DNA from: Squalus acanthias
Lineage: Eukaryota
Direction: 5' to 3'
NCBI GenBank assembly: GCA_030390025.1
Contig: CM059431.1
Location: forward strand, 99,202,001 to 99,266,000
Length of the DNA: 64,000 nucleotides
The stretch's first letter is position 1, and each line of letters begins with the position of its first letter. Of the stretch, positions 13,925 through 50,766 are shown in pieces. The position numbers and the translations under genes were made by a program. The notes under the pieces were generated by a model. It did not search any database. It worked only from the letters and a program-made list of their open reading frames with translations, and had not been told where the DNA came from.

Positions 13925-14215
13925 TCACTCCTGAAAGGTCTGGCTCTAATTCTTCGATTTGCCCCCTAGTCCGAGACTCCCCAACCCGCGGAAACAGTTT
14001 CACTCTATTCATGCTCGTATCTCTACTATGGACAACTCGATGAAAAGTGGCAGGCGTGAGACAGTAGATGTTAAGCGACAGCTGATCATGTTTAAGAATC
14101 AGAACAGTAGGGATTCAACCAGTGTTATTTACTGTCATCACAACAAGACCATCCTTAAAAGAACGATTCCAAGAGCCAGAAATCGGGTGCCACATTGGGC
14201 AATACTTTTACTTAC

Positions 14216-23261: not shown

Positions 23262-23807
23262 CTATCGGGGAACCAAACAAGAATTAAAACAGGTTGGATC
23301 TCTTTCATGGGACAGGCACATTACCCAGCAAAACACAATACCACCAAACAACAAGAAGGTTATCCACAACTCAACAGGACAAACAATAAGGGAAAGCATC
23401 GAGACAGAAACCCAGGTCAGAACAAAACCTCATCAGAGTTCCAATATGAGTCAATATATTCAGTGCGTTAGGCACCAGTGCTCTAGGTTAGCGGCAGAGG
23501 GCAGGATATGGGGAAGGAAAACGGATGGGGCGGGGTAGAAGTTGAGAACCTCGGTGCTATACAATTATAAATTTAGAAACTTGTTATTCTAACGACTGCA
23601 TGTTCCTGGCAGAGTCATTGGGCACAGCTGCAACTGATGGGTCCACTGCAGTCATCCTCATTACCCACTGCTTGATACTGCTCAACAATGCAAACAGGTC
23701 ATAGACAACCTAACCATCATAGGGCTCTGCTGGACATCCTGGAGAGTTAAGGGTTAATAGCTGAACTTGCTTGAATCTTGGGACAACAGGCTTCCCAAGA
23801 TAAACAG

Positions 23808-23900
23808 TGGCCATGATGCGGAGATGCCGGTGTTGGACTTGTGATTTCAAATAAAACTGTTGGACTATAACCTGGTGTTGTGCGACTTCTCACTTTTGTT
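23808..23900. mobile_element. Tiny PLE family A remnant (inverted tail plus partial arm)
   Basis: CATGATGCGGAGATGCCGGTGTTGGAC tail and GTTGGACTATAACCTGGTGTTGTGCGACTTCTC arm; TSD CAAGATAAACAG at 23796-23807 and 23901-23912. Confidence 0.8.
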
Positions 23901-24397
23901 CAAGATAAACAGGATGGCTTTGAATTGTCATGAGGAAAGCATGGATTGTCTCCTGCTTTTAGCGCCCGAGGGTTCTACATGAGAAGTGCTCGTGCAAGGA
24001 AATAAGTGGCAGTAATGACCTCAACCATGGATGATTAGAGTGTAACTTTGGTACCTAGTGTAATAAATTAGGTAGAGGAATCCATTTACTATAGTGTGGA
24101 AAGATAATGGTTAATAAAGCCTGTTCTTCAAAGGATTCGAGAACAGTTGCATCAGGGAGTCTTGTTTGAGAGAAGCAGCTTTGGATTAAACAACAACTGT
24201 TCACGCAAATAGACTGTCGTCAAGGGATTCAGATACGCCATGAGGTTTTATCTGTGACATGTACCTTTGCAAAATAAGGTGTATAAAGGAGCATGGTTTT
24301 CAACAGGTCTTCGGAGGGCTCGAAAGATAGAACCTGGAACCGAAAACCACTCTCTGTGTACAGAGTAGATCGATCACCTATACTGGATATCAATAAA

Positions 24398-24701
24398 AAT
24401 GAGAAGTCGCACACCACCAGGTTATAGTCCAACAGTTTTATTTAAAATTACGAGCTTTCGGAGCTGTTGCCCCTTCGTCAGGTAGAGGTACATTGAGGGA
24501 ATCTATTACACAATATAAATATTACACAATATTACACAATATAATCTATTACACAATAGATTCCCTCAATGTACCTTTACCTGACGAAGGAGCAGCGCTC
24601 TGAAAGCTCGTAATTTAAAATAAAACTGTTGGACTATAACCTGGTGTTGTGCGACTTCTCATTTTTGTCCACCCCAGTCCAACACCGGCATCTCCGCATC
24701 A
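24398..24701. mobile_element. Non-coding hairpin PLE insertion (family A), two inverted hammerhead-containing arms
   Basis: Arms homologous to the pseudo-LTR ends of 30243-32179; TSD TGGATATCAATAAA at 24384-24397 and 24702-24715. Confidence 0.88.
24577..24613 (+). ncRNA. Minimal hammerhead ribozyme motif (inverted partner at 24448-24485 on the minus strand)
   Basis: TTAC-CTGACGA-A-GGAGC-agc-GCTCT-GAAA-GC-TC-GTAA; the partner has stem II GGGGC/GCTCC. Confidence 0.75.
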
Positions 24702-24845
24702 TGGATATCAATAAAGTCTGTTACGTATACTCCACCATCGAGTGTCTCGTGCTTACTGGAAGCGTGTTGTTGTAAACCAGAGAATGGAGGAGGTTGACTG
24801 ACGGTTGAATGTTAACAGGCTTTTCTGGGAAATTGAGCGGTAGGT

Positions 24846-25835
24846 GCCAGCCGTGGCTCAGTGGGTAGCACTCTCACCTCTGAGTCAGAAGGTTGTGGGT
24901 TCAAGTCTCACTCCAGAGACTCGAGCACATAATCTGGGCTGACACTTCAGTGCAGTACTGAGGGAGCGCTGCACTGTCGGAGGGGCAGTACTGAGGGAGT
25001 GCCGCACTATCGGAAGGGCAGTACTGAGGGAGTGCTGCACTGTCGGAGGGGCAGTGCTGAGGGAGTGCTGCACTGTTGGAGGAGCAGTGCTGAGGGAGTG
25101 CTGCACTGTTGGAGGGGCAGTACTGAGCGAGTGTTGCACTGTTGGAGGGGCAGTACTGAGCGAGTGCTGCACTGTCGGAGGGGCAGTACTGAGGGAGAGC
25201 TGCACTGTTGGAGGGGTAGTACTGAGCGAGTGCTGCACTGTTGGAGGGGCAGTGCTGAGGGAGTGCTGCACTGTTGGAGGGGCAGTACTGAGCGAGTGTT
25301 GCACTGTTGGAGGGGCAGTGCTGAGGGAGCGCTGCACTGTTGGAGGGGCAGTACTGAGCGAGTGTTGCACTGTTGGAGGGGCAGTACTGAGGGAGCTCCG
25401 CACTGTCGGAGGGGCAGTGCTGAGGGAGCGCTGCACTGTTGGAGGGGCAGTACTGAGCGAGTGTTGCACTGTCGGAGGGGCAGTGCTGAGGGAGCGCTGC
25501 ACTGTTGGAGGGGCAGTACTGAGCGAGTGTTGCACTGTTGGAGGGGCAGTACTGAGGGAGCTCCGCACTGTCGGAGGGGCAGTGCTGAGGGAGCGCAGCA
25601 CTGTCGGAGGGGCAGTACTGAATGAGCGCAGCACTGTCGGAGGTGCTGTCTTATGGGTGAGACGTTAAACCGAGGCCCAGTCTGCCCTTCTCAGGTGGAC
25701 GTAAAAGAAGAGCAGGGGAGTTCACCCTGGTGTCCTGGCCAATATTTATCCCTCAAACAACATAATTAAAAAACAGATTTTCTGGTCGTTTTTTCATTGC
25801 TGTTTGTGGGACCTTGCTGTGCACAAATTCCTACA
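24846..25835 (+). repeat. Deu-SINE with 30-bp array (about 24951-25645); SINE 3' end resumes at about 26480-26580 after a CR1 insertion
   Basis: Head, array and Deu domain are colinear. Confidence 0.9.
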
Positions 25836-28800
25836 TAGGAACATAGAAGGCCATTCAGCCCTTTGAGCCTGTTCCGCCATTCAATGAGATCATGGCTGAT
25901 CTGCGACCTAACTCCATATACCCGCCTTCGGCCCATATCCCTTAATACCTTTGGTTAACAAAAAGCTATCAATCTCAGATTTAAAATTAACAATTGATCT
26001 AGCATCAATTGCCGTTTGCGGAAGAGAGTTCCAAACTTCTACCAGCCTTTCGCGTTTCCTAATTTCACTCCTGAAAGGTCTGGCTCTAATTTTTAGACGA
26101 TGTCCCCTAGTCCTAGAATCCCCAACCAGCAGAAATAGTTTCTCTCTATCGACCCTATCTGTTCCCCTTAATATCTTGAAAACTTCGATCAGATCACCCC
26201 TTAACCTTCTAAATTCTAGGGAGTACAACACTAATTTGTGTAATCTCTCCTCGTAACTTAACCCTTGGAGTCCGGGTATTATTCTGGTAAACCTCCAAGG
26301 CCAATATATCCTTCCTAAGGTGTGGTGCCCAGAACTGCTCACAGTGCTCCAGGTGTGGTCTAACCAGGGTTTTGTATAGCTGCAGCATAACTTCTACCCC
26401 CTTGGATTCTAGTCCTCTAGATATAAAGGCCAGCATTCCATTAGCCTTCTTGATTATTTTCTGTACCTGTTCATGATATTAAAACAGTGACTATACCTCA
26501 AAAGTACTTCATTGGCTATAACACGCTTTGGGACTGAGGCCGTGAAAGGCGCTATATAAATGAAAGCTCTTTCCTTTTCTTTTACATCTTTGATTCACAA
26601 CCTTTTCCTCCGCCTCTCTCTCCTCCTTTAAGATGCTCCTTGAAACCTACCTCTTTCATCAAGCCCTAATATCTTGTGTGGCTCGGTGTCAAATTTTGCT
26701 TGATAATCGCTCCTGTGAATCACCTTGAGATGTTTACTACGTTAAAGGCGCTGTATAAATACAAGTTGTTGTTATAGTTCTGGGGACAAAAGATTATTCG
26801 TACTCATATAAAGTCACAAAGATCCATGCTCTAGTGATTTTTAAAGACTGCAGTACTAACAACTTGTCTTCTCCTCGGAATTGGAATTCTCTTCCTTTTG
26901 ACTTGGAAATGATCCCAGAGTTTGGATGGTTATGGGAGTTGGGGACCAAGCCCCTACCATGCGATATCTGACGTCTATAATGGTGTCAGTCTAAGTTGCC
27001 ACTTTGCTGTCCTACACTTAGTTTCACAATTGTTGAGCACCAGTTACACTGCCCTGAATGGGTCCTGAGACTGACAGACTCGGACTACACCTACTTTGGA
27101 TGGTTTGCCAGGCTTGATGAGTAGGTAGCTCAATTGACTACTCATGTGAAAAGCGTATTTCTACCCCCAATTCTTGCTCAGCTTCGCCCACTAGACTGAT
27201 CTCGTCAGGGCCCATTCTCACTCCGGAGGGATTTTAAACTTTATTTATTCAGTGAATCATTGAATCTTACAGCACAGAAGGAAGCCATTCGGCTCGTCAT
27301 GCCTGTGCCGGCTCTTTGAAAGAGTTATCCAATTTTATCCGTCCCACACCTCAGCCTTTTCCCCATAACCTGGCATTAGTCCTCTTCAAGTACATGACCA
27401 ACTGCCTTTTGAAAGTTCCTGTGGAATCTGATTCAACCACCCTTTCAGGCAATGTGTTCCAGATCATAACAACCCTCTGTGTGAAGACATTTCTCCTCAT
27501 TTCCCCTTTAGTTCATTTGCCAATTATTTTAAATCTATAATCTCTGGCTACTGACCCACTTGCCAGAGGAATCAGTTTCTCCATCAAAACCCTTCATAAT
27601 TTTGAACACCTCTATTAAATCTCCCCTTAACTTTTTCTGCTCTAAGGAGAACAATCCCAGCTTCTCTAATCTCTCCACATAACTAAAGCCCCTCATCCCT
27701 GGTATCATCCTGGCAAACCTCCTCTGTACCCTGGTTCTTGTACAACTATGGGCATAGATTCAACAACAACAACTTGCATTTATATAGCACCTTTAACGGA
27801 GGAAAAGGTCCCAAGGCGCTTCACAGGAGTGTTATCAGACAAAAAACTGAAGTGAGTCAAAGAAAGTGATAATAGGAGGGGTGACTAAAAGCTCAATTTA
27901 AGAAGTAGGTTATTAGGTGGGTCTTAAAGGGGGAGAGGTTTAGGGAGACCTTAGGGCCCAGGCAACTGATCGCACGACCGCCAATGGTAGAGCGATGAAT
28001 CAGGGATGTATAAGAGGCCAGAATTGGAGGAGCGCAGAGATCTTGGAGGGTTGTAGGACTGGAGGAGGTGACAGAGATAGGGAGGGGGCGAGGCCATAGA
28101 GGGATTTGAACACAAGGATGAGAATTTTATATTCGAGGCGTTGCCGGACCGGGAGCTAAATTAGGTCAGCGAGCACAGGGATGATGGGCGAACGGGACTT
28201 GGTGCGGGTTAGGATATGGACAGCAGAGTTTAGGATGTTTATCTGGAGCGTTATCTGAAGAAGAATGAAGAGGAAAACTAGAAGAATATTTTTCGCACGG
28301 TTATTAGTACATGGCATGCTTTACCAGAAGTGGATAGGGAGATAGACATTGGAAGATCATTTAAAAGGAAATTGGACAACTTTGCAAAGAAAATAGAAAG
28401 ATTTGCATTTATATCGCGCCTTTCATGGCCACCGGACATCCCAAAGCGTTTCACAGCCAATGAAGTACCTTTTGAAGTGTAGTCACTGTTGTAATGTAGG
28501 AAACACGGCAGCCAGATTGCGCACAGCAAGCTCCCACAAACAGCAATGTGATAAGGACCGGATAATCTGCTTTTTAGTGATGTTGATTAAAATGTACGAG
28601 GATATAGAGATCGACCAGGGAACTGGGAATTACGAGCTGCAGTATGGCAGTAGAACGCAGTGATTCTACAACTTAAACTAGCAAAAGCTAAAGACAGCTG
28701 TAGGAAGTACAACATTTATTCAAATCTCTTTTTCTCTTGGGCATTAAAGAAAAATCCCTATCACTTCAATCTGCATGCTGGTTTCACCAAATGCACATAA

Positions 28801-29438
28801 CACAGACACTGTAGGCACATGGAAAGTACTGAGGAGTTTACCAGAAACAATATACAGCAATAAAAACGAGCAGATTAACTCAACGGGTAATGTGCTCCAA
28901 CCTCTGGATGAGAGTGGGAGAAAAAGGAGATGAAATAGAAGGCCGTTAGACATTTCAAAACTAGGGGCCATAAATATAAGATAGTCACTAATAAATCCAA
29001 TAAGCAATTCAGGAGAAACTTCTTTACTCAGCGAGTGGTGAGAATGTGGAACTCGCTACCACATGGTGTGGTGGGCTGGTATGGGAAAGAGGGGTTCCTT
29101 TTCATGGGATACTGGCACCAGTTCTGGGACAGGAAGGAGCTGTACCGATGGGACATGCTCCACCTGAACCGGGATGGGACCCGTGTCCTAGCGGAAAGGG
29201 TAAATAGAAGGGTGGCAAAGGCTTTAAACTAGTAAGCGGGGAGGGATCTACAAGAAACGCAAGCAGCCTAAATATAAACATTACAGGAAAAGTGAGCATA
29301 GGAAAGAATAAAGGGAGGACATTGACGGCAAGGGAGCAAATAGAGTTATAGAACAGGAGTCTAAAAAGATGGTTAAAGATAAAGTGAGAGGAAATCCTAT
29401 TAAAAATGAGTTAAACTGTCTGTATAGCAATGCACACA

Positions 29439-30104
29439 GGGGTAAAAATTGGGTAGCGCCCTGAAAAAGTTAGCGCCCCCGCGTCCGATTTTCCCAGGTA
29501 GCGCCCCGAGGGGGAGGCGGGGCGCTACTGGAAGCGCCCTCCGTCCCTCTTGGGGCGCTGCGAGCCAAAATCGCGGCGTTACTTGCTGCAGCGCCATGCG
29601 CTGTGGTATGTCGCGCCGCGGTACTGCAGGCCTTCCTCCCCTTCCTAAAGGGGAGGGGCCTGGCGCAGTGCGTCCCGGCGCCCAGCTGGGCCACCAGGGA
29701 TCGGGAGTGCCGGGCTCACAGAGAGCAGCCGGCACCCCGCGGGGGGGCTTCACGGGGGCGAGGGACAGCAACGGGGGCAGGTGCTAGCAGGCGGCCAGCA
29801 ACAAAAATGGCCACCTGCCACCTCCCCTTTAACTAGCGCCGCCCCGGCCGCAAGTAGGCCCCCCTGACCCCGGCGGACATAGCGTCCGGCGGTGAGTTGG
29901 GGGGCGCCACCCAATATTACAGCTGGGGTGCTGCACACGCGATGATGTCATCGCCAGCAACGCAGCGCCGCTAACGGTTAACTGCTGCCGCTAACCTCCC
30001 GCTGAATTTCGCGGGAGGCGTTGCGGCGCTGCGCCCAGTCGCTAGTTGATTTGCACCCCATTAGCGCGCTAACGGGAGGCGCAAATCAACCTAATTTAGC
30101 CCCC
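29439..30104. mobile_element. GC-rich non-autonomous DNA transposon (PIF/Harbinger-like MITE)
   Basis: Termini GGGGTAAAAATTGG and CCTAATTTAGCCCCC; 3-bp TSD ACA; interrupts the start of CR1 ORF2. Confidence 0.75.
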
Positions 30105-30564
30105 ACAGCTTCCAAAATAAAACGGGAGCTGGAGGCAATCATGCGTTGGGAGGAACCTGACATAGTACGGATTACTGAGACATGGCTACAGAAAAATCAG
30201 GACTGGGAATTAAACATTGCAGGGTATAACATATTTAGAAAAAAATGAGAAGTCGCACAACACCAGGTTATAGTCCAACAGATTTATTTAAAATTACAAG
30301 CTTTCGGAGCTATCGATCGCCCCTTCTTCAGGTAAAGTTACTATGAGTGAATCTACAAAAATTCACAGAATATAAACACAGAGAAAATGCAGAGATACAA
30401 TCTTTCCTTACATCAAAGACACACCAAGAGCACAGCCAAGACAATGAGATGTGTCCCAGGGGGTCCAACGTGTCAAAACCTGCTGTCTGCATATCCTCTC
30501 CATTTAGGTTTGTTTTTTGTGTTTGTTTTTTTTAAAAACTGGAAAGACAGACAACGATGTCAAG

Positions 30565-31800
30565 TCACGTTCTGTAGCGTGACATGAACCCGATATCCCT
30601 ATTGAGGCCGTCCTCATGAGTGCGGAACTTGGCTATCAGTTTCTGCTCGATGATTTTGCGTTGTCGTGTATCTCGAAGGCCGCCTTGGAGAACGCTAACC
30701 CGCAGATCCGAGGCTGAATGCCCTTGACTGCTGAAGTGTTCCCCGACTGGGAGGCAACCATCCTGCCTGGCGATTGTTGCGCGGTGTCCGTTCATACGTT
30801 GTCTCAGTGTCTGCATGGTCTCGCCGATGTACCATGCTCTGGGGCATCCTTTACTGCAACGTATCAGGTAGACAATGTTGGCCGAGTCACATGAGTATGT
30901 ACCATGTACCTGGTGGGTAGTGTCCTCACGTGTGATGACGGTATCTGTGTTCATGATTTGGCATGTCTTGCAGAGGTTGCCGTGGCAGGGTTTTGTGGTG
31001 TCGTGGTCGCTGTTCTCCTGACAGCTGGGTAATTTGCTGCGAACGATGGTACTTTTGAGGTTAGGCGGCTGCTTGAAGGCGAGTAGTGGAGGCGTGGGGA
31101 TGGCCTTAGCAAGGTGTTCGTTGTCATCGATGACATGTTGAAGGCTGTGAAGAACATGGCGTAGTTTCTCCGCTCTGGGGAAGTACTGGACGACGTAGGG
31201 TACTCTGTTGGTTGTGTCCCATGTTCGTCTTCTGAGGAGGTCTATGCGGTTTTTCGCTGTGGCCCGTCGGAACTGTCGATCGACGAGTCGAGCGTCATAA
31301 CCCGTTCTTACGAGGGCGTCTTTCAGTGTCCGTAGGTGTCCATCGCGTTCCTCCTCGTCTGAGCAGATCCTGTGTATTCGCAGGGCTTGTCCATAGGGGA
31401 TGGCTTCTTTAACGTGGTTAGGGTGGAAGCTGGAGAAGTGGAGCATCGTGAGGTTGTCCGTGGGCTTGCGATAGAGTGAGGTGCTGAGGCGTCCGTCTTT
31501 GATGGAGATTCGTGTGTCCAAGAATGAAACCGATTCTGAGGAGTAGTCCATGGTGAGTTTGATGGTGGGATGGAACCTGTTGATGCTATCGTGTAGTCCT
31601 TTCAGTGATCCTTCGCCGTGGGTCCAAAGGAAGAAGATGTCGTCGATGTATCTGGTGTACAGCGTTGGTTGGAGGTCCTGTGCAGCGAAGAAGTCTTGCT
31701 CGAACTTGTGCATGAAGATGTTGGCGTATTGGGGTGCGAATTTGGTCCCCATGGCTGTTCCGTGTGTTTGGGTAAAAAACTGGTTGTCGAAGGTGAAGAC
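30565..31800 (-). CDS. Partial PLE polyprotein: RT C-terminal part, Cys-rich linker and GIY-YIG endonuclease (about 411 codons, uninterrupted)
   Basis: GTAMGTKFAPQYANIFM, RYIDDIF, LYRKPT, CHGNLCKTC, NIVYLIRC...WYIGET, KIIEQKLI, GLN motifs. Confidence 0.9.
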   Translation of the reverse strand, partial: VFTFDNQFFTQTHGTAMGTKFAPQYANIFMHKFEQDFFAAQDLQPTLYTRYIDDIFFLWTHGEGSLKGLHDSINRFHPTIKLTMDYSSESVSFLDTRISIKDGRLSTSLYRKPTDNLTMLHFSSFHPNHVKEAIPYGQALRIHRICSDEEERDGHLRTLKDALVRTGYDARLVDRQFRRATAKNRIDLLRRRTWDTTNRVPYVVQYFPRAEKLRHVLHSLQHVIDDNEHLAKAIPTPPLLAFKQPPNLKSTIVRSKLPSCQENSDHDTTKPCHGNLCKTCQIMNTDTVITREDTTHQVHGTYSCDSANIVYLIRCSKGCPRAWYIGETMQTLRQRMNGHRATIARQDGCLPVGEHFSSQGHSASDLRVSVLQGGLRDTRQRKIIEQKLIAKFRTHEDGLNRDIGFMSRYRT

Positions 31801-32051
31801 ATAGAACGTGACTTGACATCGTTGTGTCTTTCCAGTTTTTAAAAAAAACAAGGACAAAAAACAAACACAAAAAACAAACCTAAATGGAGAGGATATGCAG
31901 ACAGCAGGTTTTGACACGTTGGACCCCCTGGGACACATCTCATTGTCTTGGCTGTGCTCTTGGTGTGTCTTTGATGTAAGGAAAGATTGTATCTCTGCAT
32001 TTTCTCTGTGTTTATATTCTGTGAATTTTTGTAGATTCACTCATAGTAACT

Positions 32052-32093
32052 TTACCTGAAGAAGGGGCGATCGATAGCTCCGAAAGCTTGTAA
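32052..32093 (+). ncRNA. Minimal type I hammerhead ribozyme motif in the PLE pseudo-LTR (second copy at about 30294-30335 on the minus strand)
   Basis: TTAC-CTGAAGA-A-GGGGC-gatcgata-GCTCC-GAAA-GC-TT-GTAA: stem I TTAC/GTAA, stem II, palindromic AGCT stem III. Confidence 0.75.
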
Positions 32094-35064
32094 TTTTAAA
32101 TAAATCTGTTGGACTATAACCTGGTGTTGTGCGACTTCTCATTTTTGTCCACCCCAGTCCAACGCCGGCATCTCCGCATCATATTTAGAAAAGATAGAGA
32201 AGGAAAAGGGGGAGGTGGAGTAGGTGTACTTATTAAGGATAACATAATGGCAGTGGAAAAAAGGGACGTAGATATCAGCAAGACAAAAATAGAATCCATA
32301 TGGATAGAAATAAAAGATAATAAAGGATCAGTCACACGAATAGGCGCAGTCTATAGACCACCTAATAGTGGAAGGGAGGTGGAGAAGAACTGCACAGACA
32401 AATTAGAGAAATTAGTAAAAAACAGAATAATAATCATGGGGGATTTCAACTACCCCGATATTAATTGGACAGAAGAGGTAGGTAAAGGGGATAAGGGAAT
32501 GGAGTTCCTACAATTGTACAGGACTCCTTTCTAACCCAATATGTAAAAAGCACAAGAAGGGAAGATTCACTATTGGATCTAGTTATGGGGAATGAGCCAG
32601 AGCAGATAAGAGAAGTAAAAGTAGGGAAACATAGAGGGAATAGTGACCATAATATAATATGCTTTAAGATGACAATAGAGAAGGACATAAGAATGATAAA
32701 AACCAAGTTAATAGATTGGAGAAAATCTGATTTTGAGGGGTTGATAATAGAATTTGGGAAGATAAAATGGGCAACAATATTGGCAAACAATGATGTAGAA
32801 TGACAATGGGAAACATTTAAAACGGTGTTCAACAGAGTGCAGGAAAAATATATTCCGCTAAAAGGAAAGAACAAACTAAACACTAATGAGACTCCATGGA
32901 TGAATAAAGACATAAGGAAACAATTGGGGTAAGGAAAGAGGCATACATTAAGTACATAGACAGCAGAGGAGTGCATGATGAGAGAGAATACGAAAGGATT
33001 AGGAGAGAAGTCAAAAAACAATTAGGAAGGAAAAAAGGAACTATGAAATTAAATTATCAAGGAACATAAAACAAAATAGTAAAATATTTTACAGGCACAT
33101 CAATAAAAAAAGGAAGGTTGGGATGGGAATAGGGCCATTAAGGGATAGTCAGGATAATACCACAGGTAACGATAGAGAGATGGCAGAGATATTAAATAAT
33201 TATTTTGCTTCAGTATTTACCAGGGAGATAGAACAGGTGGACATGAGATGAGTAATGAGATAAGTGCATTTAAAATAAAAAAGGGGATATATTAAATAAA
33301 CTAATCAAACTCAAAGAGGATAAACCCCCGGTCCGGATGGATTGCATCAACGCATTTTAAAAGAATCTAGGGAAGAGATAGCAGAGGCATTACTACACAT
33401 ATTTAATAATTCGTTAGAAAAAGGTGCAGTGCCAGAGGACTGGCGGACAGCTAACGCAATACCTATATTTAAGAAAGGGGATAGAACATGTTCAAGGAAT
33501 TATAGACCAGTCAGCTTAACATCAGTGGTAAGAAAAATAATGGAATCTCCATCAAAGGAGAGAATAGAAGAACATCTAGAAATGAAAAGTATAATAATGA
33601 ATAGTCAGCATGTATTTCAAGAGATTCCATTATTTTTCTTACCACTGATGTTAAGCTGACTGGTCTATAATTCCCTGAACATGTTCTATCCCCTTTCTTA
33701 AATATAGGTATTGTGTTAGCTATCCGCCAGTCCTCTGGCACTACACCACTACACCTTTTTCTAACTAATTATTAAATATGTGTATTTCAAGAGGGAAAAT
33801 CCTGCTTGACCAACCTAATTTGAATTTTTTGAAGAGGTAACAGAGAGAGTAGACAATGGTAATGCAAAAGATGTAATTTATCTAGATTTTCAAAAGGCCT
33901 TCAATAAGGTACCCCATAATAGACTAATGAATAAGGTCAGAGAATACGGAGTCAGGGGACAAGTAGCAGAATGGATTGCTGGTTGGCTTCAAGACAGAAA
34001 GCAGAGAGTGGGAGTAAAGGGCAGCTATTCACAGTGGCAGAAGGTGGTGTTCCACAAGGATCAGCTGGGACCACTGCTGTTCACAATTTACATTAACGAT
34101 TTAGACTTTGGAATCAAAAACACAATTTCTAAATTTGCGGATGACACCAAATTGGTGGGAATAGTCAATACTGAGGAGGACTGCAACAAATTACAGGAGG
34201 ACATTAATAAACTTGCAGAATGGGCAAATAATTGGCAAATGAAGTTCAACACAGACAAATGTGAGGTATTACATTTTGGTAGGAAGAATAGGGAGGTCAC
34301 TTATTACTTGGAGGGTGCGAGTCTAGGTGGGGTAGAGGAACAAAGGGATCTCGGAGTACAAATACACAAAATCACAAAGTTGCGCCACAGGTTAGCAAGG
34401 CCATTAAAAATGCAAACCAAGCACTAGGGTTTATTTCTAGAGGGATAGAATTGAAAAGTAGGGAAGTTATGCTAAACCTGTATCGAACCTTGGTTAGACC
34501 ACACTTGGAGTACTGCGTACAGTTCTGGTTCCCATATTATAAAAAGGATATAGAGGCATTGGAGAGGGTGCAGAGAAGATTTACAAGGTTGATACCAGAA
34601 ATGCGAGGGTATACCTATCAGGAAAGGATAGACAGGCTGGGTCTCTTTTCTCTTGAAAAAAGGCTGAGGGGTGACCTAATAGAGGTCTATAAAATTATGA
34701 AAGGTTTTGATAGAGTGGATACAGAGAGTTTCCACTTGTGGGGAAGAGCATAACTAGAGGCCATCAATATAAGATAGTCACCAAGAAATCCAATAGGGAA
34801 TTCAGAAGAAACTTCTTTACCCAAAGAGTGGTGAGAATGTGGAACTCGCTACCACAGGGAGTGGTTGAAGTGAATAGTATAGATGCATTTAAGGGGAGGC
34901 TGGACAAACATATGAGGGAGAAGGGAATAGAGGGCTGTGCTGATAGATTTAGATGAGGAAAGACGGGAGGAGGCTCGAGTGGAGCATAAACGCCGGCATG
35001 GACTGGTTGGGCCGAATGGCTTGTTTCTGTGCCGTATATCCTATGTAATTTTGAACGTTTACAG

Positions 35065-40090: not shown

Positions 40091-40132
40091 TGAATCGCGA
40101 TAGGAGGGAGGAAACTGGCAGTTAAAGACAAT

Positions 40133-40847
40133 GGGAGAAAAATTCGGTTGCTTTGCGCCTCCCGTTAGTGCCCCGAGGGGGTGCTAATGGGGAGCAAAGC
40201 CCCTAGCGCCCGGGCGCGGCGCCGCTAACGCCTCCCGCGAAATTCAGCGGGAGGTTAGCGGCGGCGGTAGCGCCCCACGGCACTACGCCTCTGGCGATCA
40301 CGTCATGGCCGTGCGCAGCGCCCCGGCCGCAAACTTGGCTCGCGCCCCCTGACCTACCGCCGAACGCCATGTCCGGCAGGGTCAGGGTGGCGTTTTTGCG
40401 GCCGGGGTGGCGCAAATTAAAGGGCAGGTGCCAGGTGGCCATTTTTTTTGGGCTGTCTGCCAGCACCTGCCTCCTCTCGCCTCCTCCTACGGGGTGCCGG
40501 CCGCGATCTCTCCTCGAGTGCCGGGCTCTTTTGCCGGCACCCGGCTCCCCGGTGGTCCAGCAGGGCCCCGGTGTGCGCAGCGCTAGGCCCCTCCCCTTTA
40601 ATCAGGGGAGGGAGGCCTGCAGTTCCCCGGTGCTACGTGCCGACGTGCGTGGCGCTGCTACACGTAGCGCCACGATATTGAATGGGAGCGCCCCAAAGGG
40701 GAGGGAGAGCGCTTCCAGAAGCGCTCCGCCTCCTGCTTGGGGCGCTACCAATCAATTTCGGGCGCGGGGGGGGGCGCAAACTTTAACTAAAAGTAGCGCC
40801 CGGGCGAAGTTATCGCCCCAAAGGGGGTGCGAGCCAATTTTTGCCCC
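40133..40847. mobile_element. Harbinger-like MITE of the same family as 29439-30104, in opposite orientation
   Basis: Termini GGGAGAAAAATTCGG and CCAATTTTTGCCCC; 3-bp TSD AAT; internal homology. Confidence 0.75.
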
Positions 40848-41949
40848 AATGTCTTTTTAAAACCGTAATCATCCACGACTCACAAGTTAAAGTCCTACCT
40901 CTCTCCACAGATGCTACCTGACCTGCTGAGTACTTCCATCATTTTCTGTTTTTATTTCAAGTCCCAGGATTGTTACACTAAGTTCAGCTGCCAAATTCGT
41001 TTGCGTGACAGTATCAGCAAAGCTCGCACTGAGTGCACCTTCGGATTGATAAGATTTTTGTCAGCCAAGGGTATTAAGCGATATGGAGCCAAGGCGGGTG
41101 AATGGAGTTAGGATACAGATCAGTTAACCATACTATGTGGATTATTCAGTGTGTGAGAAAACTGTGTGGGGTTTGAGGGGGGTTGGGGGGAAATTCCTGT
41201 GGCGTATTATGAAAATATGTTAAAAGGAACAGGAGTACTTTGGGATTTCCCCTGCCTATTACACTAGCTAATTAACCAATGATGCTTGAAGTATAATGTG
41301 ACAGTTTTGGTCGCCTTATCTGAGGAAGGATGTTCTTGCCATGGAAGGAGTTCAGCGAAGATTCACAAGGCTGATACCTGTGATGGCAGGAATGACATAT
41401 GAGGAGAGATTGGGTTGATTGGGCTTATACTCGCTGGAGTATAGAAGAATGAGAGGGGATCTCATCGAAACATATAAAATTCTGACAGGTCTGGACAAAC
41501 TAGATGCAGGAAGAATGTTCCCGATGGCGGGGGAGTCCAGAACCAGGGGTCATAATCTAAGGATAACGGGTAAGACATTTAGGACAGAAATGAGGAAGAA
41601 TTTCTTCACCCAGAGAGTGGTGAACCTGTGGAATGCTCTACCACAGAAGGTAGTTGAGGCCAAGTCATTAAATATATTCAAGAATGAGTTAGATATATTT
41701 CTTAAAGCTAAAGGTATCAAGGGATATGGGGAGAAGGCAGGTACAGGGTACTGAGTTTGGATGATCAGCCATGATCTCATCGAATGGCGGAGCAGGCTCG
41801 AGGGGCCGAATGGCCTACTCCTGCTCCTATCTTCTATGTTTCTATGACTTGGTTGAGTTTAAAACGTAGCATATAATAATCCTCTGAATTCAAATGATTC
41901 GATTTGTTTTGGCATTAAATTCCCACATGGCTGTGATATTTACAAGAAC

Positions 41950-42563
41950 TTGCATTTATATAGAACTTTTCACCACCTCAGGACGTCCCAAATGATTCAC
42001 TGCAATGAAATACTGTTGTAATGTGAGAAACGCAGCAGCCAATTTGCGCACAGCAAGCTCCCACAAACAGCATTGTGATAATGACCAGATAATCTGTTTT
42101 AGTGATGTTGATTGGAGGGATAAATATTGGCCCAGAACACCGGGGAGAACTCCCCTGCTCTTCTTTGAAATAGTTCCAATGGAATTTTCCAAATCGACCC
42201 GAGGAGGCAGATGGTTTAACGTCTAATCCGAAAGACAGTGCGGTGCTCCCTCAGTGTTGACCCTCCGACAGTGCGGCGCTCCCTCAGTGTTGACCCTCCG
42301 ACAGTGCGGCGCTCTCTCAGTGTTGACCCTCCGACAGTTTGGCGCTCCCTCAGTGTTGACCCTCCGACAGTGCGGCGCTCTCTCAGTACTGCCCCTCCGA
42401 CAGTGCGGTGCTCCCTCAGTACTGCCCCTCCGACAGTGCGGCACTCCCTCAGTACTACACGGAGTGTCAGCCTGGATTTTGTGCTCAAGTCTCTGAAGTG
42501 GGTCTTGAACCCACAACCTTCTGACTCAGAGGTGAGAGTGCTGCCCACTGAGCCAAGACTGGC
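41950..42563 (-). repeat. Deu-SINE with a short 30-bp array (about 42235-42460)
   Basis: About 7 units; four adjacent units share a GTTGACCCTCC variant. Confidence 0.88.
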
Positions 42564-43019
42564 ACCTATGTTGCTTAATTCAAATTAATGAGTAATTCCA
42601 TTTTTTTTTAAACTGCAAAGAAATGAATCAGTAGACTGCAATTAACGTAGATGTGTAAAAAGTCCACTGGTGTCAGAAATTTCTGCTTTTAAATAAATTG
42701 GGCTCAGTGTCCAAATCCAATCAACTGAAAGTCAGCTACCGATTCTTCAGCATTAGTTCGGGTGGTCCTCTGCTCACCTGGTTTTTGAAGCATTTGAACA
42801 CTGACCTTTCAACAACATCTTCAGCTACTCGAACCCATTACTCTCCTCACCTCCCAAGGCTGGAAGATTTCACTGGCTAGTTAGCCAGAAGCAAATTACT
42901 GTTCAGCTTTGGTGAGCTGAAAAAGAGCAGCCCGCTTTGATCCCTCCAGTGCTATCTGTAAACGGAATACTGCAGGGTGATCTCCTACAAACGGCAGTAT
43001 CCTTCCCAAGAGGTAAAAC

Positions 43020-43175
43020 CAATCTTCCCTCTAATTTCTTTTTTGGGTGCACAGCCCCTTTAATGGGCTGCGCGGCCCGTTCAAATTTTCGCACATCACG
43101 CGGTTATTTACATTGAAAAGTCCGCGCGTGACCTGCGTGGGACCTCCAGACTGCTGCGTGGCCACGGGAACACTG
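43020..43175. mobile_element. Decayed hAT-like MITE
   Basis: Termini CAATCTTCCC and GGGAACACTG; imperfect 8-bp TSD GGTAAAAC/GGTAAACT. Confidence 0.5.
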
Positions 43176-45958
43176 GGTAAACTCCCTCTTCTATATTAAA
43201 TATTACATATATTTATTAAAAAAGAATGCATTTTACCGTCATTATTTCTTTGAAAAATTAAATAATTATTTGGAGAGACTGGAGAAGCCGAGATTGTTCT
43301 CCTTACAGCAGACAAGGTTAAGGGGAGATTTAATAGAGGCGTTCAAAATTATGAGGGGTTTCAATACAAGTAAATAAGGAGAAACTGTTTCCAGTGATGG
43401 GAGGGTCGGTAACCAGAGGACACAGATTGAAGGTAATTGCCAAAAGAACCAGAGGGGAGATGAGAAATATATTTACGCAGCGAGTTGTTGTGATCTGGAA
43501 TGCGCTGCCTAAAAGGGCGGTGGAAGCTGATTCAATAATAACTTTCAAAAGGGAATTGGATAAATACTTGAAAAGGAAAAATGTGCAGGGCTATGGGGAA
43601 AGAGCAGGGGGAGTGGGACTAATTGGAGAGCTCTTTCAAAGAGCCGGCACAGGCACGATGGGCCGAATGGCCTCCTTCTGTGCTATATCATTCTATGATT
43701 AGTCCCCTATTGATTTATTCCATTCAGTCGATTTGATTTATTTTAATTGGGGCATTCTGAGGTGGTGAAAGGCATGATTTAAATGTCTGATCTTTCTTGA
43801 TATAAATGTAAATTTGTTCCTTCTTAACTAATCAATATGCAGTGCAGTACTAAAAAATACATCTACATATTTTATACTTTCACACTTGGTGTAAAAGGCA
43901 AAATGTGAAATGTTCTGCAAATCATACTCTGAAAAGCCACAGTACTTTCGATAGTCTTGTCTCTTCAATTATGAAACTGAAAATTTCAGCTTGTAGCAAA
44001 TGTCACAACCTTGGGTTAAAACATTGCTGCACTAATTCTTCCCATTGTTTGTCATTTCCAATCTTCACTTGAATTTCAACAGTTTGTTTTTCCCCCTTTC
44101 TGATTCCAGGGTTCTGCAATGTTAGTCTGATTAGAATAGTTACTGTAGCTCACAAGTTCTTTGTGCAACTAATCTACATGAAACAGTAATGTAGGTCAGA
44201 CCTACGTTACAAGGTAAGCACCTTAAAACCGCAATGATCGGAGAACGAGCACTTCCTGTGAAGCTTTAAATTGCACAGTAAAGAGGTGAAAAACTTTCAG
44301 ACTCTAGTTGCAATGCAGATAAACCACATCCCGTCAAAAATTGTGTACTATCCTATAGCAATATTACGCACATTATTGAGAATATCAGTCGAGAAATGAG
44401 CAATTAAACCATATGTTACAGAAAGCAATCACCAATGCGTTTGTGACCCATGTGCACAAGAAGTCCCAAAAAGACAATGGCAGAAAGGTTTATAGATCAT
44501 TAACACGAACAGACAATGCACGCACAGGCATGACATTTTTGAAGAAGTGCAGGGGAGTTCTCCCCAGTGTCCTGGCCAATATTTATCCTTCAATCAACAG
44601 ATTATCTCGATATTATCACATTGCTGTGCGCAAATTGCGTGCCGCGTTTCCTAAATTACGACCGTGCCTGCACCTATCTGCCTTCCCGATGACCTTGTGA
44701 GATTTCTTGTGACTTTTGGCTGCTTTGGGACGTGCTGAGGTCGTGAAAGTCGCTGTACAAATGCAAGTCATTCATTCTATTCATCTACTTTGCTAAGCAT
44801 GTTCGGTGCCATGGATTAGTACGCGCATCAGGTTGGGACTGACAGCTTCGCACAGTACTGGATTGGCTATACGTCAAGTCAGTAAAACTGGCTTTTGTTC
44901 ACACTCTAAAAACACGTTCCCCTCAGGAATGAGATTGTCCGACGACAATGCACACACACATTAGTTATGAAAATTAAGATTAGAATTAGGAAGGACTAGA
45001 AGCTTGGCTTGTGCTCCCTTGCGCTTAGAAGGTTGAGTGGTGATCTAATTGAGGCACTTAAAATGATAAAAGGATTCGATAGGGCAGATACAGAGAAACT
45101 ATTTCCTCTGGTGGGGGAATTCAGAACAAGAGGACACAATCTTAAAATCAGGAAGCAGCTTTTCCACACAAAGGGTAGTGGAAATATGGAACTCGCCCCC
45201 AAATATGCTGGAGATCAATTGAAATCAAGACTGAGATTGACATTTTTATCAGGTAAAGGTATCAAGGGATATCAAAGGTGGGTAAATGGGGTTGAGGTAC
45301 AGATCAGCCATGTTCTAACTGAATGGCAGCACGGGCTCGATGGCTGAATGGCCTCCTCCTATTCCCGTAAGTGGTATCGAGTAGTTGCTTCTAATAGCTC
45401 GATAGCGCCACCGACAGGAGGTTAGTAGTATAGCAGCACCTTAAAATTCAGAAACACTTAACACGGTGAAAATAAATGCTCATTAAAATTAAGGTGGAAT
45501 CACCAGTATCTGCAAAGTACATCAGAGTTAGATTCAAAATCAGTACCTTTAAGGATCGATCACTGAATGCACTTGGGCCAACACAAATACACAGCAAGGT
45601 TCTCGCACTGTACAGGCCTACCAAATGTGCTTAAAGAAAGACTTGCATTTCTACAGCGCCTTTCACTGTCCCAAAGTGCTTTACAGCCAATGAAGTACTT
45701 TTGAAGTGTAGTCACTGTTGTAATAGTCGATATAGTCAGTCTTGAATACTTCTGCCAAAATTCCATACGTGATTACCTCCTTTGATGGGGAAGGACGGTT
45801 TTGTACAATAGCGTTGAGTAAAATACAAATTGAACTGTGAAGTTATTTGAAATACCAGTGGATCTGCTCATGGGAAGTTGCAGGATATTAATTTCTTGTA
45901 AGACAGTGCAGTCCAAATAGAATCGCTGACGAGCCCTGGGTGTGGCTACGGCGACACC

Positions 45959-46687
45959 GGGCCAGAAATTCGGGTGAGTACGCGCTGTGTACTCACCCGT
46001 AGACCCAACGAAGTGCCGGTTTCGCGCATGCACTGCGCATGCGCTGGAAACCGGAACTTCCGTTCCCCTGAAGGAAGGGGTTCAGAGGTCGAACGCGTGC
46101 GCCGGAGAGGCAGCGCGCACACAGCGAACTTCGTTTTTTTTTCAGGTTTCTCCGTGAGGGTAAGTACGGAGAAGCTGCGTGGGGAAAAAGGAGGCGCAAG
46201 GCCTGTTTTTAACAAGGTAAGTGGTGAATTAAGTACAATTTAAACATTTTTTCAACAGGTTTATCTTTTTTACATACTTTAAAGAAAGGTAAGTTTATTT
46301 TTAGCACCGTTAAAAAGTATAATTAATTTTTTCAAAAATTAAAATTTTTGTTTAAAGTAGTTAATTTATAGTTATTTTAAAAATGTGATTTTTTAAAAAT
46401 TTATTTGAAGTTTTAGTGAGGTTTTGGGGCCGATCTCTATTCATAGATTTGACAGGTCTTCCTGTCAAAATCTATGAATGGAGATTCCCTGCTCCGATTG
46501 GCTCTCCATGGCCCACGTGATCCCAGGGAACGCTTCGAACTAACTGCGCCCCTGGGATACGCGAGCAGCTGCAGGAGGCCCAGGAGCTGAATTCCACGCG
46601 GGCCCAAAGCACAACGGCAGGCGCGCTAGGTAAGTACGAGTGCGATCCTTGCACCTGCGGGAAGCCGGAGAGCCGAATTTCTGGCCC
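45959..46687. mobile_element. MITE with perfect 15-bp TIR GGGCCAGAAATTCGG
   Basis: TIRs at 45959-45973 and 46673-46687; CpG-rich subterminal regions and an AT-rich core; no TSD evident. Confidence 0.7.
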
Positions 46688-47551
46688 AAGGTTTTAGTCA
46701 CATGCACTAATTTTAGTCGAAAACACTTACACCTAATACAGGTAAATGTGCTTCACACGCGTACATTTACTTAAACATCTCCCACCAAGAGAGTAAACCA
46801 CTTACAACAATCAAAAAACACTCACACACTCTGCTTTTCGTCTTACCATTTTACCAACAAATGCACAAAAAGGTTTAAAGTTCTCATGCACCGTGCGAAT
46901 ACAAGTATTGAGATTAAATGACCTAACGATGGTGACTATTACTCATTGGTTTATTTACTAATCAGAAATGCAATTTAGCCACATCTGGCTCTGTTGCCTG
47001 TATCCTAAGTCGCTCCGAGTCCCTTTCACCCATCGCCCCCTGTGCTCGCTGACCTACATTGGCTCCTGGTCCGGCAACGCCTCGATTTTAAAATTCTCAT
47101 CCTGGTGTTCAAATCCCTCCAATGGCTTTGCCCCTCCCTATCTCTGTAACCTCCTCCAGCCCCACAACCTTCAGAGATCTCTGTACTCCTCCAATTCTGG
47201 CCTCTTGCACATCGCTCCACCATTGCCGGCCGTGCCTTCGGCTGCCTGGGCCCTAAGCTCTGGAATTCCCTCCCTAAACCTCTCCGCCTCTCTCTCCTCC
47301 TTTAAGACTCTCCTTAAAACCTACCTCTTTGACCAAGTTCCTATCCTAATATCGCCTTATGTGGCTCGGTGTCAAACTTTGATAGCACTCCTTTGAAGTG
47401 CCCTTGGGATGTTTTACTACATTAAAGGTGGTGTATAATTGTTGCTGTTGTACTGTTCAAAGGCGTGCATTTTTCAAACAGAGTCTGGGCCCTTCTCTCG
47501 AAGTTCTGCTCTAAAGAAAAGCTGCTGGTGTTCTTCTCTGACAGTTCCTAC

Positions 47552-47632
47552 CTCTTCTTCTTGCTAACGATCATGTCCATGGTCTGCAGCAATCGTCTCT
47601 CCAGAGCAAGGATATCACTGTCGGTCACATTC
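47552..47632 (-). CDS. GPR89: GPR89 exon 7 (NVTDSDILALERRLLQTMDMIVSKKK)
   Basis: Polypyrimidine tract plus AAG acceptor, GTAGGA donor, 81 nt. Confidence 0.95.
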
Positions 47633-48527
47633 CTTGGGAGGGGGGGGAAAAAAAGAGCGAAAGGCACATTACAAAAATCAGATAAAAGTCAAAGTGGGGT
47701 CTAATTTGCCCCTGTCAACATGCTTCATCAGATATGGTACAAGAACCCATGGTTGTAAAAGATAGCTCAAAATATGGTACATGGGTTTAAGATGCAAGTT
47801 TTGAAATTACACAGGTGCGTAGGATCTTCAAGTATGGCTCATTTAGCAATATTTAAAAATATTTATAATCATAGAATCCTACAGCACGGAGGAAGGCCAT
47901 TCGGTCCATCGTGCCTGTGCCGGCTCTGTGAAAGAGCTCTCCAATTAGTCCCACTCCCCCCTGCTCTTTCCCCAGAGCCCTGCAAATATTTCCTTTTCAA
48001 GTATTTATCCTTTTGAAAGTCACTATTGAACCTGCTTCCACCGCCCTGCATTCCCGATCACAACAACTCGCTGCGTAAAAACAAACTTCTCCTCATCTCC
48101 CCCCTGGTTCTTTTGGCAATTACCTTGAATCTGTGTCCTCTGGTTATTGACCCTCAAAATATACAGATTGTTATATTAAAAAAAAGTTGATAGCAAATTT
48201 AATTTAAAAAAAACCAGCTGATCTTCTGTTGCATTGCGGAGGTAAAAATAAAATCTCTCTATAGGTGCAACGCCCTCGCTACTCAACTCCCACTCATTGT
48301 CTTTAACCCTTCATCTCATTTCCGCGTATGCTTCTTTTGTCTGTTTGTCTCAGACTCTTTTCCCTCTTTCTGTAAGTCTCTGTCTCTCCGTGCCCTCTGT
48401 ATAAGTATTTCTCCCTTATGTCCCCCACCGATTTACTCAAACTTCACGCATTGCTGTGTTAGAAAATACCAGCCACACCCAGAACTGTTGTAATATTTTT
48501 CATTCTTTCACTGAAGTTAGACTCTAT

Positions 48528-49350
48528 GGGGGAAAAATTCAGTTGGTTGCGCCTCCCGTTAGCACCTTAAGAGGGCGCTAATGGGGCGCAAAGCAACTAG
48601 CGCCTGGGCGCGGCGATGTTTGCGCCGCTCGCGAAATTAACTAGACATTTTGCGGCGGCGCTAAACACTATCGCCACGATCTCCTGCGCCGGCAGATTGT
48701 GACGTCAGTCGAGTGCGCAACGCCCCGGAGCGGATATTGAGTGGCGCCCCCTGCCTTACCGCCTGCCGCTAGCAACGACAGGTTGAGGGGAGCGTTTTGC
48801 AGTCGGGAAGGGACTGGGGGAGCGCTATTTAAAGGTCACCGCTTCCTGCCTTTTATTGTTGGTGACATTTTTGCACCACGCATTCTGAGAGAGACTTCTG
48901 GAGAGATTCAACGCTGTGTGAAGGAGTTTTGGGTACTGAGCAGCACTTTGCAGGTTCATTTTGATTTGCCCTTCCTTGTATCGATTTAGAAGAGACTGTG
49001 GGGGCTGCACTCTGAGCTCTTTCCCTGGGTCTCTCCATTGTTCTTTCCAGCAGATTTGATGTACAGGTCTCTCCAGGCCGAGATTCAAGGCTGCAATGAG
49101 CAGGATGTGGATGGAAATCAAGATCAACCCTCCCCTTTAAGAACTGGCCGGCGCCAGTGTGTCTCGGCTCCATTGCTGACTGACATCACGAGCTTCGCCA
49201 GCGCTCTGAGGTAGCGCCTCGTTCCTCAGCCTTTGCGCCTTAAGACAAGTGTGTAGCGCCTGATTTAGCGCTCCAATCACCTCCAGGGGCGATAAAAGTC
49301 AAGTTTGCAGTCGGAGGCGATAATTAGTGCCAGGCGCTAATCTTTGAATA
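48528..49350. mobile_element. Related Harbinger-like element; right end uncertain
   Basis: Left end GGGGGAAAAATTCAGTTGGTTGCGCCTCCCGTTAGC homologous to 40133. Confidence 0.6.
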
Positions 49351-50007
49351 TTCCATCACGCTCCTGACTCGAGCCTCCTCTGCCCTGCACACTGACCCTT
49401 CCCTTCCCCATGGTTCAATTTTCTTCACAGGGTGGGGGCACGATGGTCTACCTTTCTGGAGTTCAGGGAGCTTTTTGGTCTCAGTGGGAGATGGGGGGGG
49501 GGGGGGGGGGGTGGGCTCAGAATTCCAGGGTGGTTGGTGTCTCGGTCAGAGATTGGGGGGGTGGGCTCAGAATTCCAGGGTGGTTGGTGTCTCGGTCAGA
49601 TTGGCAGGGTGGGCTCAGAATTCTACGGGTGCTTCTGTCTCGGTGGGGGCCGGTTTGCTACCATCAGACATAGACGCGCGCCATCGTGATTGCCGGCACT
49701 TGTCGGTTAATTGAACATTGTGCAAATCCACTGATTCAGGTTAGGACGAACCCACAGGCACCGTACCCAGGGAGGGAACCCATCACTATGAACGTAGTCT
49801 GTTCCACTGATTGGTGGGTGGAGAGGGGAGCTTTTATTGTCAAATGGGAAAAGAACGCAGACAGCCCGAAATTGAAGGTGGAGCAATGGACGTCAAAATG
49901 AAGTGGTAATTTAAATGGGTACACCCAACAAATGATTCCTGAAGTAACGATGGGGGCGTTTGAGGGTACAATGGGGCTTTACAATAAACAATCACCCACA
50001 ATCTCAC

Positions 50008-50128
50008 CTCAGAAAGTATGACATATATGTGTATGGGCAATTCACCGCACCAAAGCCTGACAACAGTGCCATTAGCGTGACACCAATGACCCCAACTCTG
50101 CTGATCAATTGCTCGATTGATAGAATAC
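50008..50128 (-). CDS. GPR89: GPR89 exon 6 ([39 protein letters not shown])
   Basis: CAG acceptor, GTGAGA donor, 121 nt; conserved [11 protein letters not shown] motif. Confidence 0.97.
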
Positions 50129-50261
50129 CTGACGGAGAGAAAGAAAACAAATCAGACACAAATGGATTCCCACGTTAAAGACGCAAGATTTTTTAAAATT
50201 TATACTGTGAAATCGCAAAACCTCACCTGTACAGATTTTACAACAAGTCCAGATAAGCAAA

Positions 50262-50502
50262 ATAAAAAAAAGCAAAATACCGCGGATGCTGGAAATCTGA
50301 AATAAAAACAGAAAATGCTGGAGATACTCAGCCGGTCAGGCAGCATCTGTGGAGAGAGAAACAGAGTTAACGTTTCAGGTCGATGACCTTTCATCAGAAC
50401 TTCTGTGAAGGGTCATCCACCTGAAACGTTAACTCTGTCTCTCTCTCCACAGATGCTGCCTGACCTGCTGAGTATTTCCAGAATTTTTTGTTTTTATATT
50501 AT
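50262..50502. mobile_element. Hairpin PLE-type insertion, family B, carrying a hammerhead motif
   Basis: Inverted arms, one-sided tail, TSD ATAAGCAAA at 50253-50261 and 50503-50511. Confidence 0.78.
50365..50401 (-). ncRNA. Minimal hammerhead ribozyme motif (family B)
   Basis: AGTT-CTGATGA-A-AGGTC-atc-GACCT-GAAA-CG-TT-AACT; stem I AGTT/AACT, palindromic ACGT stem III. Confidence 0.75.
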
Positions 50503-50652
50503 ATAAGCAAAGTAAAACCCAGATTTAAGATAAAGCCTCTAGAAGACGTCAGAATGGTTTTAAAAACATATGCCTAAGACCATTCGAATTAGAAATAAAA
50601 TGTCACAGTGCTTTAATATTACTATTGATAGAACACTGTGATGTATGGAGAG

Positions 50653-50766
50653 CATGATGCGGAGATGCCGGTGTTGGACTGGGGTGGACAAAATTGAGAG
50701 GTCGCACAACACCAGGTTATAGTCCAACAGTTGGACTATAACCTGGTGTTGTGCGACCTCTCAATT
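50653..50766. mobile_element. Tiny PLE family A hairpin insertion with a perfect 37-bp inverted repeat
   Basis: Arms 50692-50728 and 50730-50766 with a 1-nt spacer; TSD ATGTATGGAGAG at 50641-50652 and 50767-50778. Confidence 0.88.

Follow-up and report, generated by a model that had tools for sequence, protein, structure and literature searches.

The 64,000-nucleotide (nt) stretch of Squalus acanthias DNA analyzed here (GCA_030390025.1, contig CM059431.1, forward-strand positions 99,202,001 to 99,266,000; hereafter the window) carries four insertions that belong to one Penelope-like element (PLE) family. They are referred to as copy A (23808-23900), copy B (24398-24701), copy C (30243-32179), and copy D (50653-50766). 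When copy C was compared with the whole window by blastn, these loci were matched and none besides. Each of the four consists of two head-to-head arms, carries a tail on one end and none on the other, and is bounded by a target-site duplication (TSD). A first-pass annotation of the window had noticed an inversion and a different 12-14-bp TSD in every copy, and this is borne out, the exact TSDs measuring 12, 14, 13, and 12 bp in A to D.

Layout and coding capacity of the insertions

In copy A, the TSD (23796-23807 and 23901-23912) encloses a minus-strand tail arm at 23808-23839, which holds the outer ~31 nt of the tail alone and runs 4 nt beyond the ATG of the element, and a plus-strand tail-less arm at 23838-23900 (62 nt and one extra base), which overlaps the tail arm by 2 nt. 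The tail of this copy had already been described as partial, correctly so. Copy D, between the two copies of its 12-bp TSD (50641-50652 and 50767-50778), has a minus-strand tail arm of about 79 nt at 50653-50732, whose outer end falls on the ATG, and a plus-strand tail-less arm of 37 nt at 50730-50766; the arms overlap by 3 nt around a loop of 1 nt. Copy B (TSD at 24384-24397 and 24702-24715) begins with a minus-strand tail-less arm (24398-24519) and ends with a plus-strand arm carrying the tail (24555-24701), each with a minimal hammerhead (cores 24481-24456 and 24581-24605, respectively). At its center (24505-24556), a word of 10-12 nt taken from the end of the left arm occurs four times, which looks like templated reiteration. 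Copy C lies in the endonuclease open reading frame (ORF) of a host long interspersed nuclear element (LINE), between the two copies of a 13-bp TSD (30230-30242 and 32180-32192). Its minus-strand tail-less arm comprises a non-coding part (30243-30564), corresponding to the 3' untranslated region (UTR) or pseudo-long terminal repeat (pLTR) with a minimal hammerhead (core 30331-30302), and a 5'-truncated PLE ORF (30565-31800); the plus-strand tail arm (31803-32179) is made up of UTR, a minimal hammerhead (core 32056-32085), and the tail.

Exact direct repeats of at least 12 bp were found at 16 of 600 random position pairs examined with a similar search window, so the presence of such TSDs at all four copies is not due to chance. 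Excision of copy C with one TSD kept brings back the reading frame of the endonuclease in the host LINE. The TSDs of the family are 58-85% AT, and the window is 54% AT.

The ORF of copy C (minus strand, 31800-30565) is a stop-free fragment of 411 amino acids (aa), in which the C-terminal half of a reverse transcriptase (RT) with the motif YIDD, a CX4CxxC linker, and a GIY-YIG nuclease follow one another. The match to RVT_1 (E=9.7e-5) falls under the Pfam cut-off because the RT is truncated. A local Pfam scan of the C-terminal 145 aa gave no GIY-YIG call; the assignment is based on alignment, in which VYLIRC...WYIGET and conserved R, H, E, and N residues match homologues, some of them with a precomputed PF01541. 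The same homologue alignment shows C272, C277, and C280 of the linker to be invariant. The CCHH motif of endonuclease-bearing (EN+) PLEs, defined by two cysteines between GIY and YIG (PMC8557442), is also present: C315 is invariant, the second cysteine lies four residues on, and H355 and H361 are invariant. Of 2715 candidates in a search of longer proteins, 279 were relatives, and the best of those of full length has 64% identity; identity to full-length RT and GIY-YIG proteins is 40-64%, and the closest named relatives of the N-terminus are shark proteins. A CX2-5CxxC linker is diagnostic of Neptune and Nematis, while Penelope and Poseidon are without it (PMC8557442). By this motif, copies A-D would represent one canonical EN+ PLE family of the Neptune/Nematis type. 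The other features of canonical EN+ PLEs are found in the family as well: an ORF with RT and GIY-YIG, the CCHH motif, inverted pLTRs with a one-sided tail and a TSD, and a minimal hammerhead. An inverted truncated copy with a one-sided 30-40-bp tail and a TSD is the typical layout of PLE insertions (PMC8557442, PMC3846280; PLEs in general are described in PMC8969392).

Two further two-armed copies in the window appear to belong to a second PLE-type family, as judged by layout and motif. One (50268-50502) has its tail on the left, a hammerhead core at 50397-50373, a junction loop of 1 nt, and a 15-bp TSD with one mismatch (50253/50503). The other (11752-13925) has its tail on the right, a quasi-palindrome and reiterated word at its center, and an exact 12-bp TSD (11740/13926), and was later split by a LINE of ~1.9 kb that encodes a 569-aa RT fragment. 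Both have one tailed and one tail-less end, and in both the sequence stops no more than about 16 nt from the hammerhead's 5' edge. No coding copy of this family is present in the window. Its three fragments (1280-1317, 2671-2753, and 40899-40959), for which no convincing TSD or second arm was found, were left out of the comparison of six two-armed copies given below.

Outer ends, junctions, and hammerheads

Read in frame, the tail is translated as HRHLRIM. In a read-through gene model from a shark, HRHLHI is continued by MTTIDTT, and a second shark protein starts with MTTINAA; the tail therefore ends at the start codon of the ORF. A common, fixed tail terminus had been proposed for the four copies. 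The tail is indeed confined to one side, whereas its outer end is not fixed and falls between about 3 nt ahead of the ATG and 4 nt beyond it. For the tail-less arms, the end position is 31-41 nt upstream of the ATG. Contigs and reads from four of the 23 listed runs were aligned to 31803-32192, about 55% of run X5 being covered. Among the 3' loose ends with mixed flanks listed for X5 (10,723 contigs aligned), those with the best support are at 32182 (112 contigs), 32141 (53), and 32151 (27), and in run X10 such ends at 32182-32183 occur in 21 contigs among those listed. The ends in independent runs agree with two start sites bounding the tail. Run X16 gave 61 contigs on this region; the 23 reads of the raw-read RNA run X21 all fell on a low-complexity, A-rich stretch.

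Two RT start sites that bound the tail were described in vitro for PAc, a Poseidon element of Anolis carolinensis that nicks and extends both strands (PMC11167929), and the two end positions in A-D match this pattern. At the eight outer ends, microhomology with the continuation of the template amounts to 3, 2, 2, 3, 0, 0, 1, and 0 nt; the sum of 11 nt has a P of 0.001-0.03, depending on the assumed match rate, with the continuation past the ATG taken from other copies. This is suggestive of a primer-template match. In the nick flanks of the four TSDs, the base just 3' of the presumed nick is G in six of eight cases, and so is the fifth base; this post hoc bias (P 0.002-0.011 per position) may reflect a nick preference.

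The junctions of the four copies are all different. In copy A, the tail arm ends 5-8 nt short of the template point at which the 62-nt tail-less arm starts, so that the arms, although joined with a 2-nt overlap, do not overlap on the template. The earlier description of all four copies as hairpins consequently holds for the inversion but not for copy A, whose arms cover separate parts of the element. The junction of copy C connects the middle of the ORF with the beginning of the UTR and shows no clear overlap, and the tail-less arm contains 1230 nt lacking from the tail arm. Copies B and D, as well as both second-family copies, have near-symmetric junctions. In four of the six two-armed copies of the two families, the tail-less arm extends further 5' than the tail arm, by about 1230, 69, 20, and 12 nt; in the other two, both arms stop within 4 nt of each other.

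Among the listed contig joints, a single opposite-strand joint was found; the lack of recurrent joints is weak evidence, the short-hairpin joints of the window itself being likewise unlisted. The listed joint lies at 32077/32147 in X10, with a shorter side of 34 nt, and fits a tail-only arm like that of copy A, its orientation being unchecked. Four "go-back" joints in X5 and X10 at reference positions 32111-32175 suggest that the arm end forms very short tandem direct repeats at other loci. A 24-nt arm pattern had no matches in metagenome and viral contigs. Between 31803 and 31870, close to the inner end of its tail arm, copy C has an insertion of 13 nt and a deletion of 2 nt; outside this region the tail arm is identical to its partner, so that the errors cluster near the junction.

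A scan of the window for hammerhead cores returned six matches, of which four correspond to the motifs claimed for the two larger copies (one per arm in B and C), one to the second family, and one to position 18867; a scan with Rfam at the gathering score gave no match. The motifs of B and C are of the minimal type I: a stem I of 3-4 bp is combined with the core, a single extra base, and a 5-bp stem II. A four-base palindrome takes the place of helix III, and C or U is present at the predicted cut. The two hammerheads of copy B lie on opposite strands, so each strand carries one sense motif that would be transcribed after its antisense arm. In the predicted fold of the copy B transcript, whichever strand is taken, the closing pair of stem II has a probability of 0.0; moreover, in the tail arm the G10.1-C11.1 pair is lost by decay to G-U. 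We infer that the hammerheads are passengers derived from the pLTR.

The first-pass annotation had also stated that copy B matches copy C at the hammerhead end, differs from it further inside, and might be a subfamily or a self-standing ribozyme-bearing unit. The two copies are 88% identical over 151 nt, and the inner, upstream part of B aligns to the UTR of C with a score reached by one of 5000 shuffles. Homology continues inside the hammerhead as far as the junction of B, whose center is the reiterated 12-nt word and not new sequence. Copy B is accordingly a truncated copy of a diverged sister subfamily, which upholds the subfamily part of the statement and not a non-homologous interior. Hammerhead retrozymes carry tandem motifs on the same strand, whereas copy B has no same-strand ribozymes able to fold in the predicted unit transcript. 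Since the predicted fold of the transcript masks the ribozymes of copy B, it is unlikely to be a self-standing unit, and the four different junctions likewise do not favor this. Separately, in copy A the start of the tail-less arm (23838-23840) is situated 1-3 nt upstream of the cut predicted for the hammerhead. Run-off at the cut was considered and rejected, since this is the only one of eight arms to start at most 3 nt away, and it still retains the base preceding the cut. The isolated core-like match at 18867-18839 (minus strand), with a 4-bp stem, looks unrelated and is probably due to chance.

Origin of the inverted inserts

Copies A-D are probably dead, 5'-truncated insertions of a single endonuclease-bearing PLE family, each generated by twin priming. 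According to the proposed mechanism, the GIY-YIG domain would nick both target strands 12-14 nt apart, which would give rise to the TSD, and each nick would prime the RT on a sense RNA spanning the 3' UTR and continuing into the start of a downstream ORF. The complementary DNA (cDNA) of the tail arm would start at the ORF ATG and that of the tail-less arm 31-41 nt upstream, with a primer-template match of 0-3 nt. Both cDNAs would stop early, the tail-less one usually reaching further, and their ends would be connected by 0-4 nt of microhomology or by reiterated copying, producing a head-to-head insert. The size of the insert would be set anew in each event, and the small copies would represent stumps, not an amplifying family. 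The tail cDNA might also follow the leading cDNA and stop where that one stopped, which would reconcile the near-symmetric junctions with this mechanism.

A strand switch had been suggested previously for these inserts. In its fold-back form, a single strand would turn back upon itself at a short inverted repeat and serve as the template for its own mirror arm, and self-priming on an antisense template was proposed for PLEs in this way by Arkhipova et al. 2013 (PMC3846280). Besides being a published model, fold-back accounts for the near-symmetric junctions of B, D, and the two second-family copies and for the quasi-palindromes and reiterated words at the centers of B and the 11.7-kb copy. In A and C, however, neither arm could have been copied from the other without a jump, given that the arms of A are free of overlap and the tail-less arm of C has 1230 nt extra. 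Simple fold-back cannot yield the four of six copies in which the tail-less arm reaches further: a fold-back starting from the tail predicts the opposite lengths, and a cDNA starting from the tail-less side cannot supply the tail, which argues for two nick-primed cDNAs. A loop of 1 nt is too tight for a snap-back, and the loops of that size in D and the 50.3-kb copy suit the annealing of two cDNA ends. Two cDNAs, one per start site and joined in the middle of the insert, are the best fit to all six copies, and separately primed cDNAs are thus preferred to a strand switch; fold-back seems to us an unlikely origin. Several points nevertheless weigh against twin priming. Only six two-armed copies were seen, and in four of them the end points of the arms lie no more than about 20 nt apart, which is unexpected for two fully independent cDNAs and is naturally explained by fold-back; this is the main counter-evidence. 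PAc in vitro is without strand bias in its start site (PMC11167929), so one tail per insert is not predicted from it, and the ATT nick motif that PAc prefers is not evident at the target sites of A-D. The tail is found at either end according to Craig et al. (PMC8557442), so the longer tail-less arm may not be general. Arm identity can also stem from later arm-to-arm conversion, and the contig test for recurrent junctions is insensitive. No paper on twin priming for PLE inversions, or on these shark copies, was found in a search that covered few subscription papers and no supplements.

Other explanations concern the short hairpins, above all copy B, which could be a non-autonomous family amplifying as a unit by means of PLE proteins, ribozyme-bearing and similar to retrozymes or short interspersed nuclear elements (SINEs). 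The ~12% divergence of B from C and its own variants upstream of the hammerhead would suit such a family, as would the ends of both second-family copies near the hammerhead. In X5, the summed contig depth reaches 8.7 million over the arm end (32115-32127) versus 17-38 thousand beside the ORF, a figure which is not copy number. Against this stand the absence of any shared junction among the four copies and the position of the hammerheads on opposite strands, where they are masked in the predicted hairpin. Furthermore, B is without ORF-start sequence past the ATG, while the PAc template requires the first 172 nt (PMC11167929), and no high-depth opposite-strand joint occurs among those listed, although this test is weak. 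An amplifying unit is therefore considered improbable, and the remaining alternative, in which the copies are MITEs (miniature inverted-repeat transposable elements) from a DNA transposon, products of later local rearrangement, or artefacts of the assembly, is very improbable. Hairpin shape speaks for it, and an unrelated inverted duplication within a LINE at 33394-33784 indicates that local fold-backs occur here. Yet the copies lack the symmetric terminal inverted repeats and fixed TSD of MITEs: their termini are asymmetric, with a one-sided tail, and the TSD varies between 12 and 14 bp. Their arms correspond to the 3' end of an element with RT and GIY-YIG, every insert is flanked by a TSD of its own, and identical ends are seen again in independent runs; the coding copy and the restored empty site already contradict this alternative. 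The first-pass view that these are products of PLE retrotransposition and not MITEs is thereby supported.

If twin priming is the origin, the two cDNAs may have been copied from one RNA or from two. The arms of copy C are identical over 294 nt (100%), and those of copy D share two rare variants that are not among the listed 1% variants in contigs. Such sharing points to one donor or to later arm-to-arm conversion. In copy B, four of the seven arm differences, one of them a CpG decay, are located within the 14 nt of stem II and its loop (P 0.004 for this particular interval, 0.11 for an interval placed anywhere). The stem variant of the right arm of B occurs in 12 contigs of X5, and a loop 4 nt shorter than that of C, which is the left-arm length, also in 12; both types of loop seem to be present in the population. 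It is possible that the two arms of B derive from two templates, for which these variants are weak evidence; a local mutation cluster or gene conversion is possible as well. Tentatively, and with more doubt than confidence, an ordered form of twin priming by a dimeric RT can be proposed, in which one nick is tied to the ATG and the other to a point ~35 nt upstream, the upstream cDNA leads, the tail cDNA follows or stalls behind it, and two RNAs are at times used. If true, this ordered two-template reading would replace the antisense self-priming model.

Relation to known systems and other features of the window

Like EN+ PLE insertions such as Pen2a_Av (PMC3846280; PMC8557442), the shark inserts consist of a 5'-truncated copy beside an inverted 5'-truncated copy, with a 30-40-bp tail at one end that lies at the ORF start, a short TSD, and a hammerhead in the pLTR. 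They differ from these examples in TSD length (12-15 bp in the shark, 8-10 bp in the rotifer elements) and in the end of the tail, which is at the ATG in the shark and about 22 codons into the ORF in Pen2a_Av-type elements (PMC3846280; PMC8557442). Unlike canonical EN+ insertions, the shark copies are as small as 90 bp, and one has non-overlapping arms. The layout itself is already known for PLEs, and it is the mechanism of inverted, one-tailed insertion to which A-D appear to add.

Two RT start sites bounding the tail and AT-rich targets are shared with PAc, which nicks and extends both strands (PMC11167929), while the shark element belongs to another clade and has the CX4CxxC linker. The start sites of the shark element are located at the ATG and upstream of it, those of PAc 111-118 nt into the ORF; the hammerhead is about 90 nt upstream of the ATG in the shark and lies across it in PAc (PMC11167929). 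In the available text of that study, two-strand priming is not tied to inverted inserts. The shark hammerheads resemble the minimal PLE hammerheads of Cervera and de la Pena 2014 (PMC4209133) in the type I core, the extra base between positions 9 and 10.1, the G10.1-C11.1 pair, the palindromic remnant of helix III, and the variable stem II and loop. Unlike in that description (PMC4209133), the motifs of one shark insert are on opposite strands and form no tandem dimer within one transcript.

In L1 twin priming (Ostertag and Kazazian 2001, as cited in PMC2246262; see also PMC3649969), both target ends prime cDNA on the RNA, and a 5' inversion inside the TSD results. Copy A is the most similar to this case, as its tail arm comes to an end shortly before the second start site. 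In contrast to L1, the second start site of the shark element is fixed at 31-41 nt from the first, poly(A) is absent, and the arms usually overlap, which results in long inverted repeats. The stumps resemble MITEs and are easily misannotated. The short shark copies offer many clean events for which the two ends, the TSD, and the junction can all be read, which bear on the choice between twin priming and fold-back, and the rule of two start sites could extend from Poseidon to the linker-bearing clade. Hairpins of this kind, if transcribed, would be double-stranded RNA.

Additional inverted structures occur in the window. Short GC-rich or mixed imperfect palindromes at 29486-29573, 30045-30090, 40667-40765, and 46433-46485 are unrelated to either PLE family; those at 29486, 40667, and 46433 have no likeness to either family, and no convincing TSD was found at the two of these three that were examined for one. 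The inverted duplication at 33394-33784 consists of ~165 nt of local LINE sequence with a 13-bp direct repeat near 33612 and 33782, and resembles an insertion made by templated repair, with no relation to the PLE. Finally, the regions 2-800 and 14602-17144 contain head-to-head LINE 3' ends with 78-83% identity, which may be separate insertions or old inversions.

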